The position numbers and the translations under genes are program-made. The notes under the pieces are model-generated. The model ran no database searches. It saw nothing but the letters and a program-made list of their open reading frames with translations, and was not told where the DNA came from. This document shows, piece after piece, positions 10,007 through 63,180 of a stretch of DNA of 64,000 bases; position 1 is the stretch's first letter, and the number at the start of each line of letters is the position of its first letter. The stretch comes from Pseudomonadota bacterium (GTDB lineage Bacteria > Pseudomonadota > Gammaproteobacteria > Burkholderiales > Rhodocyclaceae). The stretch is taken from contig CAUJIV010000049.1 of NCBI GenBank assembly GCA_963205435.1, forward strand, positions 7,932 through 71,931, given 5' to 3'.

Positions 10007-11932
<1,926 letters not shown>

Positions 11933-33137: not shown

Positions 33138-33376
33138 GATTCCATCCTTGCAGAAACGGATTCGCTGGATCGCGGATCGACGAAAGCACCGAGAAACACG
33201 CGGCGGCAGCGAACCGCCCGGGGAAAATCTGCGCGGCCTTCCCAATGCAATGCCATGAAAAGCACGTGAATTATATCGAATCCCGCCATTCGCCGCCGCA
33301 GCGCGGCACACGCATGCGGATGGCATGTCGAGGCCGGCCTGGCGCTGCGCGCCGACATCGTGGCTGCGCAACAGGC

Positions 33377-34528
33377 TCAGCCTGCCGCGGCAGGCACCGG
33401 CTTGCGCCAGCCCTGCCAGAGCACCAGCAGGCCGGCGAGCGCGAAGGCCGAAGCCAGGGTGAAGGTCGTCTGGGCGCCCCAGGCCTCCCAGGTCCAGCCG
33501 CTGAGCACGCCGCCGAGCATGCCACCGGCGCCGAAGGCAATGCTGCCGTACAGCGCCTGGCCGCGCGACTGGTGGCGGCCGGCGAACCAGCGGTTGACCG
33601 CCGCCACGGCGGCCGCGTGATAGGCGGCGAAGGTCGCCGCGTGCAGCAGTTGCGCGATGACCAGCAGCGTCAGCCATGCAACGCCCCAGCCGATCAGGAG
33701 GAAGCGCGCGACCGCGCAGGCCAGGCTGAACAGCAGCATGCCGCGCAGGGAATAGCGCAGGAGCAGGCGCGGCAGGAGCAGGAACACGGCGATCTCCGCC
33801 AATACGCCCGCCGTCCACAGGAGGCCGACCGTCGCCTTGCCGTAGCCCTGGCCGACGAGGAAGATGGAAAAGAACACGTAGAGCGCGCCATGCGCCGCCG
33901 ACATGAAGAAGCTGGCGGCGAACAGCGCCTTGACCTCGCGCCGGCGCAGGATGCCGGTGATCGGCAGCCGGTCCGACGCGTGCCGCTCCTGCCGCCGGTC
34001 CGGCAGGGCCAGCGCGCTGGCGAGGATGCCGCCGAGCAGCGCCAGCGACACCCACAGCGTCGCCGACAATGGCAGGCGGTCGAGCAGCCAGCCGAGGCCG
34101 AGCACGGCGACGATGAAGCCGACCGAGCCCCACAGGCGGATGGCGCCGTAGCGGCTGGCCCGCGCGCCGAGATGGGAGAAGGTCAGCGCCTCGACCAGCG
34201 GCAGCGCCGCGCTCCAGAAGAAGGACAGCAGCGCCATGCCGAAGAAATGGCCGGCGAAGCCGCTAGCGAAGAAGAAGCAGGAGAAGCCGAGCAGGCTGAA
34301 CAGCGCCGAGGCGCGCACGATCGGCGCCCTGGCGCCGCTGCGGTCGGCGAGCCAGCCCCACAGGGCGGGCGCCGCCACGCGCATGACCTGCATCAGCGAC
34401 ATCAGCACGCCGATGTCCCAGGCGCTGAAGCGGCGCGCTTCGAGGTAGAGCGTGAAGTAGGGAAAGAACGCGCCGATGAAGGCGAAGTAGAAGAAGTAGT
34501 AGGCCGACAGGCGCCAGTAGGGAAGCAT
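33377..34528 (-). CDS. MFS transporter
   Basis: About 12 hydrophobic segments; WGWLADR and YGAIRLWGSVGF motifs. Confidence 0.9.
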   Translation of the reverse strand: MLPYWRLSAYYFFYFAFIGAFFPYFTLYLEARRFSAWDIGVLMSLMQVMRVAAPALWGWLADRSGARAPIVRASALFSLLGFSCFFFASGFAGHFFGMALLSFFWSAALPLVEALTFSHLGARASRYGAIRLWGSVGFIVAVLGLGWLLDRLPLSATLWVSLALLGGILASALALPDRRQERHASDRLPITGILRRREVKALFAASFFMSAAHGALYVFFSIFLVGQGYGKATVGLLWTAGVLAEIAVFLLLPRLLLRYSLRGMLLFSLACAVARFLLIGWGVAWLTLLVIAQLLHAATFAAYHAAAVAAVNRWFAGRHQSRGQALYGSIAFGAGGMLGGVLSGWTWEAWGAQTTFTLASAFALAGLLVLWQGWRKPVPAAAG

Positions 34529-59330: not shown

Positions 59331-60574
<1,244 letters not shown>

Positions 60575-60578
<4 letters not shown>

Positions 60579-60682
60579 GATTTCACACTTGTCAGCTTGT
60601 CAGGTTCAGGAGGCGGCAGGCCCGAGGAGTGGATGATCCAGTCCTCATACGGCAAAGCCAATCCAGAAGTCTCGAGAATCAT
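60575..60682 (-). CDS. Candidate 35-aa ORF coupled at both ends
   Basis: [35 protein letters not shown]. Its ATG overlaps the stop of the duplicated argF end; its TGA overlaps the argG ATG. Confidence 0.4.
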
Positions 60683-60743
60683 TGGCCCACACGGCCCAAC
60701 AACAGAAATTCCATCAGCGCCTTCTGCGCATGGAGCCGATTTT
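60679..60743 (-). repeat. Synonymously diverged direct repeat of the argF 3' end (copy of 60825-60889)
   Basis: 60/65 nt identical; both copies encode [20 protein letters not shown]-stop. Confidence 0.97.
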
Positions 60744-60828
60744 GTCTTTGGCCGGCGCTGCGCGCCTTGACCTTCGCTGCGCGAAGGTCAGCCTTCGACG
60801 AAATCGGCTCGGAAAGTCCGAGGGTCAT
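60679..60828 (-). CDS. Candidate 49-aa ORF: palindromic spacer fused in frame to the duplicated ArgF C-terminus
   Basis: [49 protein letters not shown]; ATG overlaps the argF TGA. Confidence 0.4.
   Translation of the reverse strand: MTLGLSEPISSKADLRAAKVKARSAGQRQNRLHAQKALMEFLLLGRVGQ
60733..60810. repeat. Branched palindrome between the two argF 3'-end copies
   Basis: Outer stem GAGCCGATTTTGTC / GACGAAATCGGCTC (13/14); inner hairpins GGCGC-TGC-GCGCC and TGACCTTCGC-TGC-GCGAAGGTCA. Confidence 0.9.
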
Positions 60829-61748
60829 TGGCCCACCCGCCCCAGCAACAGAAATTCCATCAGCGCCTTCTGCGCGTGAAGCCGATTTTCCGCCTCGTCC
60901 CAGACCACGCTGTGCGGCCCGTCGATCACCTCGGCGGCCACTTCCTCGCCGCGATGGGCCGGCAGGCAGTGCATGAACAGCGCGTCGGGCCGGGCCTGGC
61001 GCATCATCTCGGCATCCACCTGCCAGGCCTCGAAATCGCGCCGGCGCGCCTCGTTTTCCGCCTCGAAGCCCATCGAGGTCCACACGTCGGTGGTGACCAG
61101 GTCGGCGCCGGCAACCGCCTCCATGGGGTCGGCGAATTCCTCGTAATGGTCGGTGCCGTAGAGACCGGCCCGCTCGGGCTCGACCTCGTAGCCGGGCGGC
61201 GTGGACACATGCACGTTGAAGCCGAACACCTCGGCGGCCTGCAGCCAGGTGTTGCAGACATTGTTCGAGTCGCCGATCCAGGCCACCGTGCGGCCGGCGA
61301 TCGGGCCGCGGTGCTCGATGAAGGTGTAGATGTCGGCGAGGATCTGGCAGGGGTGGTACTCGTTGGTCAGGCCGTTGATCACCGGCACCCGCGAATGTCG
61401 GGCGAAACGCTCGACGATCTCCTGCTCGAAGGTGCGCATCATGACGAGGTCGCACATGCGCGAGATGACCTGCGCGGCGTCCTCGACCGGCTCGCCGCGG
61501 CCGAGTTGCGAATCGCGCGTGCTGAGGAAGATCGCCGTGCCGCCGAGCTGGTGCATGCCAGCCTCGAAGGAGAGCCGGGTGCGCGTGCTCTGCTTCTCGA
61601 AGATCATCACCAGCGTGCGGTCGTGCAGCGGATGGTAGGCTTCATAGCGCTTGAAGCGCTCCTTGATCCAGCGCGTGCGCTCGAAGACGTGCTCCAGCTC
61701 CTCGCGGGAGAAGTCCTTCAGCTGCAGGAAATGCCTTGGCGCGGCCAT
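60825..61748 (-). CDS. argF: Ornithine carbamoyltransferase
   Basis: FEKQSTRTRLSFE, HPCQ, WTSMG, FMHCLP, AENRLH. Confidence 0.99.
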   Translation of the reverse strand: MAAPRHFLQLKDFSREELEHVFERTRWIKERFKRYEAYHPLHDRTLVMIFEKQSTRTRLSFEAGMHQLGGTAIFLSTRDSQLGRGEPVEDAAQVISRMCDLVMMRTFEQEIVERFARHSRVPVINGLTNEYHPCQILADIYTFIEHRGPIAGRTVAWIGDSNNVCNTWLQAAEVFGFNVHVSTPPGYEVEPERAGLYGTDHYEEFADPMEAVAGADLVTTDVWTSMGFEAENEARRRDFEAWQVDAEMMRQARPDALFMHCLPAHRGEEVAAEVIDGPHSVVWDEAENRLHAQKALMEFLLLGRVGQ

Positions 61749-61760
61749 GGCGCGTCGGCC

Positions 61761-62930
61761 TCAGGCGAGGAACTCGCGTATCAGCGGAGCGAGAAGGGCG
61801 ACCAGCTCGCGCGCGTCCTCGTCGCTGAAGATCAGCGGCGGCAGCAGGCGCACCACCTTCTCCGCCGTGACGTTGATGAGCAGCCCGCGCTCGAGGGCCC
61901 GCGCCACCAGCTCGCCGCAGGGCCGCTCCAGCTCGATGCCGATCATCAGGCCGTCGCCGCGGATGGCGACGACGCCGTCCAGGCCCGCCAGCGCCGCGGC
62001 GAAATCGGCGCGAATCCGCTCGCCGAGCAGGACGGCGCGCGCCAGCAGGCCGTCCTCCTCGATCACTGCCAGGGTCGTCAGCGCCGCCGCGCAGGCGAGC
62101 GGATTGCCGCCGAAGGTCGAGCCGTGGTTGCCCGGCTTGAAGACACCGGCGGCGGCGCCGGCCGCCAGGCAGGCGCCGATCGGCACGCCCGAGCCGAGGC
62201 CCTTGGCGAGGGTCATCACGTCCGGCCTGACACCGGCATGCTGGCAGGCGAACCAGCGGCCGGTGCGACCGATGCCGCACTGCACCTCGTCGAACATCAG
62301 CAGCCAGCCGCGCTCGTCGCAAAGCCGGCGCAGGCCGCGTAAATACTCCGCATCGGCGACATGGATGCCGCCCTCGCCCTGCACCGGTTCGAGCAGCAGC
62401 GCGACGACGCTGCGGTTGTTGGCCGCCACGCTCTCCACCGCGGTCAGGTCGTTGAAGGGCACGCGCACGAAGCCGCCGACCAGCGGCTCGAAGCCGGCCT
62501 GCACCTTGCGGTTGCCGGTGGCCGACAGCGTCGCCAGGGTGCGCCCATGGAAGGCCTTTTCCATGACGACGATGGCCGGCGCGTCGACGCCTTTCTGGTG
62601 GCCGTACAGTCGCGCCAGCTTGATGGCGGCCTCGTTCGCCTCGCAGCCGGAATTGCAAAGGAACGCTTCCTCCATGCCGGACAGCTCGGCAAGGCGATCG
62701 GCCAGCCGCTCCTGCTCGGGAATGCGGTAGAGATTGGCGGCGTGCAGGATGCGCCCCGCCTGCTCGGCGATGGCCTTGACCAGGCGCGGGTGGCCGTGGC
62801 CCAGGGTCGACACCGCGATGCCCGCCAGCGCGTCGAGGTAGCCGCGGCCAGCCTCGTCGAAGGCGCGGGCACCCTGGCCGTGCGTGAAGGCCACGGGCAG
62901 CCGGTTGTACGTGTTCATCAGATGCGGCAT
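61761..62930 (-). CDS. argD: Acetylornithine aminotransferase
   Basis: NSGCEANE, FHGRT, EPVQGEGG, DEVQCGIGRTG, AKGL, HGSTFGGNP. Confidence 0.95.
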   Translation of the reverse strand: MPHLMNTYNRLPVAFTHGQGARAFDEAGRGYLDALAGIAVSTLGHGHPRLVKAIAEQAGRILHAANLYRIPEQERLADRLAELSGMEEAFLCNSGCEANEAAIKLARLYGHQKGVDAPAIVVMEKAFHGRTLATLSATGNRKVQAGFEPLVGGFVRVPFNDLTAVESVAANNRSVVALLLEPVQGEGGIHVADAEYLRGLRRLCDERGWLLMFDEVQCGIGRTGRWFACQHAGVRPDVMTLAKGLGSGVPIGACLAAGAAAGVFKPGNHGSTFGGNPLACAAALTTLAVIEEDGLLARAVLLGERIRADFAAALAGLDGVVAIRGDGLMIGIELERPCGELVARALERGLLINVTAEKVVRLLPPLIFSDEDARELVALLAPLIREFLA

Positions 62931-63180
62931 GGTCGGGACACCCGGCTCATCGGTTGCAAACGACTGTAAAAAGCGAAAGGCGGCTTGCGCCGCCTTGCTT
63001 GCACGCAAATCTTAAGGGAAAACCTCCGACGTGTATAGCTCGGTGCCATGGGTGCCGGTAGGAGAAAGCCGCTTTCGCTTTCGTCGCAACCGCCCGCGGG
63101 ATGCGGGAGTTTGCTGCAGAGAAACGCCCCGGATTGAGCGCAAGGTCGCGACAACTGCCCGCACCGCTTCGAAAAAGATT

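Follow-up and report, generated by a model that had tools for sequence, protein, structure and literature searches.

In Torulaspora and Lachancea yeasts, each integration of a WHO homing element at FBA1 replaces the 3' end of this housekeeping gene, and recombination uses the downstream fragment as homology (Coughlan et al. 2020, PMC7282813). At icd of E. coli, the target of e14 or phage 21, the gene extends into the element, on the far side of which a C-terminal pseudogene copy, icdC, is found (Hill et al. 1989, cited in PMC13626634). According to the icd passages of PMC13626634, the two copies differ mostly synonymously, and exchange between them gives a working chimera. MIRUs (mycobacterial interspersed repetitive units), as portrayed in the passages on these repeats in PMC12548453, are short sense-oriented repeats at operon junctions, often in tandem, with an internal open reading frame (ORF) that is coupled by an overlap of -4 nt and with little disturbance of expression. 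Here, we describe a locus in the window, i.e., the whole 64,000-nt stretch of DNA that was analysed (contig CAUJIV010000049.1 of a Rhodocyclaceae genome, hereafter G000), in which the 3' end of the ornithine carbamoyltransferase gene argF is present twice and the two copies are separated by a folded element of 81 nt, termed E. We consider it likely, with a probability of about 0.72, that this repeat is the footprint of a small, non-coding, structured betaproteobacterial repeat, which brings its own gene tail and pushes the old one downstream.

The doubled argF tail and element E

The argF gene (60825-61748, 307 amino acids, NCBIfam NF001986 with 469.9 bits) lies on the minus strand, as do all other features of the window given below, and its last 21 codons form tail 1. 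A repeat search detected a direct repeat of 71 nt with 90% identity and a spacing of 146 at 60673-60743 and 60819-60889. Copy A (60819-60889) consists of the functional argF end (tail 1, coding part 60825-60889) and 6 nt following the stop codon. Copy B (60673-60743) contains tail 2, a displaced yet intact ArgF tail (coding-like part 60679-60743), which is out of frame with argF. The first-pass annotation, which was made from the letters of the window alone, had already reported the argF end as a direct repeat. The doubled tail itself was confirmed, but the statement made there that both copies stop exactly at the stop codon is corrected here: the repeat includes the 6 nt behind it. In the 3-kb region searched, no further repeat of more than 30 nt at ~70% was found.

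The coding parts of the two tails match at 60 of 65 positions. The mismatches (60837/60691, 60840/60694, 60845/60699, 60876/60730, and 60879/60733) were all scored as third-codon synonymous (CTT/CTC, CAC/CAT, CTG/TTG, GGG/GGC, and CGG/CGT), and both copies give the same peptide, in agreement with the earlier statement that all five are silent. The chance of five synonymous differences out of five is 0.001-0.003 with both copies drifting and 0.01-0.026 with one drifting. That the codon usage of the tails is unlike that of the argF body also holds. The GC content at third codon positions (GC3) drops from 0.92 in the body to 0.71 in tail 1 and 0.70 in tail 2, and the lowest GC3 of any 21-codon window in the body is at least 0.81.

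Logan contigs from four runs, each of a different study, contain 60480-60948 (or nearly this region) in one piece with 0, 0, 0, and 4 differences. The spanning contigs take in argG, the relic of a native tail described below, tail 2, E, tail 1, and argF. Therefore, the duplication is real DNA and no chimera of strains, a possibility that the first-pass annotation had raised. In one run, a joint skipping 482 nt was seen; it stems from a diverged organism and is not interpretable.

Element E fills the 81 nt between the tail copies (60744-60824) and is matched by covariance model R1 at 60730-60820 (86.9 bits, E-value 5e-23). On the gene strand, a short post-stop spacer is followed by the left arm X' (60797-60810, 14 nt), the hairpin H1 (60769-60789, perfect, 8 bp), the hairpin H2 (60754-60766), and a 3' end continuing into the right arm X and tail 2. 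X' pairs with 60733-60746 (inverted repeat, 93%) and is, at argF, the beginning of the duplicated segment in reverse complement. The fold comprises the outer stem X'/X, an inner stem of three pairs, a stem of four pairs, and then H1 and H2. It is backed by covariation: 93.8% of the cells are paired, and the score is 0.266 vs 0.104 after shuffling (reached by 0 of 500) and at most 0.057 with slid partners. Rfam has no family for E, its sole match being at chance level (20.5 bits vs a gathering score of 35.1). E encodes no gene; the only frames at the locus are two relay frames of 49 and 35 amino acids.

The outer arms X'/X vary from locus to locus and copy the local gene, with duplications of ~10 to >100 nt. 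Of 85 loci, 60 have a site 6-76 nt upstream, mostly beginning with AAA or CAA, with which X' shows complementarity (≥10 of 12 positions). Hence, one unit is composed of the last ~10-100 nt of the host gene (from X to the stop), X' as an inverted copy of the first 8-16 nt of this segment, and a conserved core of ~60 nt with two hairpins on a common stem.

In relatives of the same genus, the argF-argG spacer is ~20 nt long, and the ArgF tail ends in ...HTQKALMEYLLLGRVNP or HTQKALMEYLLLGRVNP/S before the stop. The argF body of the window is 87.3% identical to the genus (0.873), and the tail 68.8% (0.688); among the genus relatives themselves, the values are 87.0% for the body and 87.4% for the tail. 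In another genus of the same family, the native tail ends in ...EFLLLGKVGQ and is 83% identical to both window tails. Judged by these comparisons and by their low GC3, both window tails are of a foreign type. Local alignment with the relatives L013 and L015 further points to a decayed native argF tail of the genus type, together with the native short spacer, directly before argG (60590-60640, relic stop at 60606-60608). The alignment is colinear with the genus tail end, stop, and short spacer, and its score of 32 compares with 16.7 ± 2.9 for shuffled sequences (maximum 30 in 500). The simplest history would be two successive arrivals of foreign tail units before the native tail, with the newest one adjoining the gene. 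Repeated rounds of replacement had been suspected in the first-pass annotation, and the foreign tails 1 and 2 together with the relic support this. The comparison of argF-argG intervals, likewise proposed there, gave the empty site of ~20 nt in the genus relatives and, for at least 10 genomes from other families, an argF followed by E and a second tail.

Two mini-ORFs connect argF with argG. The ATG of mini-ORF 1 (60679-60828, 49 amino acids) overlaps the argF stop (ATGA), and the frame crosses E into tail 2, where it is in the ArgF frame. The ATG of mini-ORF 2 (60575-60682, 35 amino acids) overlaps the stop of mini-ORF 1, and its stop overlaps the argG ATG, again as ATGA at both ends. Through these three overlaps, the mini-ORFs are predicted to keep argG translation tied to argF. 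No intrinsic terminator or promoter was found in the argF-argG spacer. The downstream operon gene argG (59331-60578, NCBIfam NF001770) matches argininosuccinate synthase with 631 bits, argD (61761-63008) matches acetylornithine transaminase with 469 bits, and argF matches ornithine carbamoyltransferase with the above-mentioned score (470 bits, rounded).

Element E in other genes and genomes

A covariance model of E was built from 72 copies. With such a model, two E units with three ftsW tails were located between ftsW and murG (G000:C17:4024-4222). The middle tail is shortened, and the native tail overlaps the murG start. The same site is empty in about 12 genomes of the genus and carries E units in G000 and G023. 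Near position 7320 of C17, mraY is followed by two units of a second E subfamily in a like layout; the functional and the displaced tail show 5 synonymous differences and 1 non-synonymous difference. A dps-like gene (ferritin-like, Dps-type) on contig C35 has 3.1 tandem units of 129 nt, each consisting of the last 13 codons and E. Further single copies are present in G000. A scan for other genes with recurring tails had been proposed in the first-pass annotation, and in fact dps, ftsW, mraY, and a tRNA-Leu gene also carry the core with their own tail duplicated. A genome-wide scan for tails that recur downstream recovered argF, dps, and mraY, and was noisy from other tandem repeats and spurious GC-rich ORFs.

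The tail-repeat scan also found a CRISPR-like array with a 36-nt repeat beginning GTCTCAATCCC (G000:C88, near 10400-10800). A repeat unit of ~70 nt near 18000-18274 of C27 overlaps ORF ends, and a CTTTGCG-rich repeat is found at ORF ends near 5100-5336 of C79 and near 15000-15198 of C90; both are unrelated to E. Within the window, a degenerate E-like copy (33316-33409, model R1 with 28.7 bits, E-value 5.6e-5) is situated at the 3' end of a gene ending in ...WRKPVPAAAG, the stop codon of which lies within the GGCTGA motif of the copy.

The tRNA case is found on G000:C69:1-610 (L167), where three E units occur in alternation with 3' halves of tRNA-Leu(CAA) that are duplicated from the anticodon loop to CCA. 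The last (displaced) half differs by compensatory changes in the T-arm, which is the analogue of synonymous change. ARAGORN and Rfam reported no tRNA on C69 because the contig begins within the array, and the gene was identified as tRNA-Leu(CAA) via relatives. The assembly probably broke on this tRNA array. The relatives G003, G002, and G015 have tRNA-Leu(CAA) with E and a duplicated half, and in G013 the site is empty.

In public genomes, at least 119 loci carry the exact 21-nt core pattern, and almost all of the matches listed are from Betaproteobacteria. The recurrent host genes among them are metK, dnaB, a glmS-like gene, pstB, motA, ivd, liuC, cysH, ftsW, ftsZ, gapA, dps, and argF. In the genus of the window, 26 of the 27 other genomes have 1-28 copies of E, so that the range within the genus is 0-28 per genome. 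E is sense-oriented behind a long ORF in 62 of 67 loci vs 32 of 67 in the opposite-strand control. The sequence after E repeats the sequence before E in 37 of 72 loci vs 6 in the control. A layout as at argF recurs at other genes in complete genomes of relatives. A literature search yielded no description of the E core or family in print, and this small, protein-less, hairpin-forming family, which is widespread in Betaproteobacteria, is apparently undescribed.

The tail pairs were compared codon by codon. The 36 curated distinct pairs differ by 133 synonymous and 38 non-synonymous codons (p < 1e-13 even if 50% is taken as the expectation, a pooled value that is overstated because orthologous pairs are not independent, although the direction is consistent gene by gene). 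Drift of the displaced copy since a local duplication predicts at most ~40-48% synonymous differences. Therefore, most of the divergence dates from a time when the two copies functioned as gene ends in separate lineages. This supports the earlier claim that both argF tails evolved as working ArgF ends. Functional tails are AT-richer at third codon positions than displaced ones, as a trend only (54 vs 35, two-sided binomial p ~0.06).

Single loci add to this picture. In L209, the two argF tails agree completely over ~53 nt and then diverge in the last five codons, a pattern that points to an exchange within the tail. An argF array of another family (L029, G027:C31, 1782-2347) has at least three tail-plus-E units of 137 nt and is broken by a run of N; its displaced tails show non-synonymous changes too. 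In an Ideonella metagenome-assembled genome (L083, 190-560), a glmS-like gene ending in PRNLAKSVTVE has two identical tail-plus-E units and then a third tail. This tail encodes the identical peptide with CGC>AGA and TCG>AGC codon switches, i.e., a deep synonymous divergence. In two public Burkholderiales loci (L080, 2258-2600, and L104), E is located inside the 5' end of accC, right after accB. There, the gene head (ATG and ~12 codons) is duplicated instead of a tail, and the downstream copy is the working start.

Mode of entry and competing explanations

A unit would join the resident gene at a site of the GA|AAAY type, which in argF lies 21 codons before the stop. The tail brought by the unit would complete the reading frame, and the resident tail, shifted downstream, would decay. 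At argF, at least two such events would result in the observed order of tail 1 (in use), E, tail 2 (displaced, intact), and the decayed native relic before argG. The units may spread between orthologous genes of different lineages by recombination, with the tail and the gene body as homology. This would amount to a WHO-like or Campbell-like replacement of gene ends by host recombination that needs no enzyme encoded by the element. Arrays may grow by unequal exchange between copies. As a best guess, X' arises by fold-back or template-switch copying at the hairpin when a new gene is colonised for the first time. In substance, the comparative data support the proposal of the first-pass annotation that a small incoming unit supplies a tail and displaces the old one; it is the entry route that we infer.

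Several points weigh against this reading. No movement was observed, and no same-species empty allele, no circle, and no enzyme were found. No demonstrated mechanism accounts for how X' originates or how the first duplication comes about at a new gene. No near-identical donor unit was found; the best argF-plus-E loci elsewhere reach 71-76% identity. High conservation in the first half of the tail prevents the foreign segment's left boundary from being placed exactly at X. A possible older E remnant after tail 2 is not significant (p = 0.17), and the statistics of the tail pairs suffer from the non-independence mentioned above. Finally, the sense orientation, the open relay frame, and the covarying stems would also fit an RNA element that is kept by selection.

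A locus-specific inverted target copy adjoins the conserved folded core of E, and no dedicated enzyme is linked to the element: its distribution is not followed by that of Y1 transposase, reverse transcriptase, or integron integrase. The first-pass annotation had seen no recombinase in the window; the contig indeed has none, and the six PF00589 matches of the genome are all on other contigs. Likewise, PLSDB and INPHARED contain no E copy on plasmids or phages.

The REP-associated tyrosine transposase (RAYT, Y1 type; REP, repetitive extragenic palindrome) was rejected as mobiliser. PF01797 occurs in 14 of 28 genomes of the genus, and no pair of E copies flanks any Y1 gene. It is absent from G002 (complete, 11 E copies) and was not found in G024 (83% complete, 26 E copies). 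A resident reverse transcriptase, acting by target-primed copying, was rejected as well: RVT_1 is found in 8 of 28 genus genomes, none of them the source genome, and three genomes that are complete or almost so (99-100%) lack it and have 8-28 E copies. A diversity-generating retroelement does not apply either; the tail differences (T/C, C/T, C/T, G/C, and G/T) are not adenine-specific, and G000 has no RVT_1.

A full-length integron integrase is encoded in the source genome (G000:C74:4340-5281, L227; TIGR02249, 457 bits), as in 17 of the 28 genus genomes including this one. G001 has no match to the integrase model and 14 E copies, and G022 has only a part-match under the cut-off and 15 E copies, these assemblies being 83% and 81% complete. 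E was not found in cassette arrays, nor near intI in complete genomes. The relative G003 has a typical cassette array (G003:C1:1793986-1805500, L226) with attC sites that share the GGCTAAC and GCGCAGCGCC motifs with E. Against the E model, genuine attC sites score weakly (12-15 bits), and the link of the integron integrase to E is weak.

A more far-reaching possibility, which we regard as unlikely, is that E is a protein-less, structure-guided gene-end cassette. Its folded single strand, with a long imperfect stem, a conserved C/A mismatch, an internal loop, and an AAC/GTT hairpin cap, would offer X' as a guide to a matching GAAAAY-type site, and a host enzyme acting on the folded DNA would join the unit. 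Candidates for this enzyme are the integron integrase, Xer, and template switching during replication restart. If true, E would constitute programmable mobile DNA of a new class. Moreover, ordinary genes could by such a natural route acquire attC-like sites at their 3' ends, a point of relevance to how integron cassettes, whose origin is unsolved, came about.

An origin by local events only is improbable to us. Here, a REP-like hairpin would sit behind genes, replication slippage would duplicate the tail in place, and the copies would stay synonymous through reading by the mini-ORF or through RNA structure. Perfectly identical tandem units at L098, L064, L161, and L083 and the plain 3.1-copy repeat at dps are in line with this. 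So is mini-ORF 1, which takes in tail 2 in the ArgF frame, and in nine gene families inspected by eye the open frame of the core is in phase with the displaced tail. However, codon usage can produce such a phase bias, GAA-AAY being the usual phase of GAAAAY when genes are GC-rich. Frameshifts or truncations are seen in displaced copies elsewhere (the middle ftsW copy; L098), and translation is no explanation for the duplicated tRNA halves. Both window tails depart from the genus type alike, and a third relic of the genus type lies by argG, a pattern that duplication of the native tail cannot yield.

Another explanation is that E and the second tail form a selected cis-regulatory RNA module of the arg operon, which acts as a 3'-end or processing structure or in translational coupling and is inherited vertically without being mobile. 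The covarying stems, the strict sense orientation, the relay ORFs with three ATGA overlaps, and the spacer that lacks a terminator or promoter would all suit such a module. Yet E is absent at argF in most species of the genus, is patchy at >20 unrelated genes and a tRNA, varies from 0 to 28 copies per genome within one genus, and has no such family in Rfam. We give this explanation a low probability.

It is very improbable that the 146 nt are the scar of an integrase-bearing island or prophage that was attached at the argF 3' end, as e14 at icd, and later deleted down to 81 nt. Direct repeats with a gene 3' end and a synonymously diverged copy are the hallmark of such elements in the icd account of PMC13626634. 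Against it, one conserved core of 81 nt, and not random leftovers, stands between the duplicated tails of many genes, the contig has no integrase, and the plasmid and phage collections have no E copies. An assembly chimera of two argF alleles in this metagenome-assembled genome, a draft of 134 contigs with 85% completeness, can be set aside in view of the single contigs of four studies that span the locus with 0-4 differences and the like layout at other genes in complete genomes of relatives.

Comparison with known systems

If the preferred reading of E as a carrier of gene tails is true, it would account for the mosaic and compositionally odd last codons that conserved genes, among them argF, metK, dnaB, ftsW, and mraY, can have. 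Short pseudo-tails would be explained as well, as would tandem repeats where operon genes meet and some of the breaks seen in draft assemblies. Annotation would be affected, since E sites give rise to mini-ORFs and false extensions, and so would phylogenetics based on 3' ends. Moreover, E would offer strain markers of the MIRU-VNTR type (VNTR, variable number of tandem repeats).

Miniature inverted-repeat transposable elements have fixed terminal inverted repeats and target duplications of a fixed length, whereas E has neither. With the REP, REPIN, and BIME (bacterial interspersed mosaic element) repeats and their RAYT, E shares the small, structured, GC-rich nature and the position mostly right behind genes. 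In contrast to these, E has 0-28 copies per genome and not hundreds, is arranged in direct tandem units and not in inverted doublets, and comes with long target duplications. E resembles the integron attC in folding into an imperfect hairpin and in its conserved GGCTAAC...GTTA motif. However, the AAC/GTT pair of E closes a hairpin of 19-25 nt, unlike the attC of 57-141 nt, and the boundaries are not at G|TT.

MIRUs resemble E in the three -4 nt ATGA overlaps at the argF-argG junction and in the orientation bias (62 of 67). They are mycobacterial, whereas E is almost confined to Betaproteobacteria among the matches listed, and the two are not known to be related in sequence. To our knowledge, MIRUs have not been described as duplicating or replacing the tail of the upstream gene or as carrying an inverted target copy.

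E is similar to e14 at icd in that its direct repeats contain the 3' end of the target, with tail 1 on the element side completing argF and tail 2 displaced. Its presence at a tRNA gene with a duplicated 3' half recalls the islands that target tRNA genes. With a length of 10-100 kb, an integrase gene of their own, and a single site, these elements differ from E, which has no integrase and a different duplicated sequence at each locus. The stacked old ends at argF (tail 1, tail 2, and the relic) and the discordant divergence of body (0.873) and tail (0.688) are as in WHO. WHO elements carry a homing-endonuclease gene, are kilobases long, and act in diploid meiosis, unlike the bacterial E with ~80 nt, no gene, and many target genes. 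Thus, if our reading is right, bacteria would hold a miniature, enzyme-less counterpart of the gene-end replacers known from WHO in yeast and from e14 at icd.

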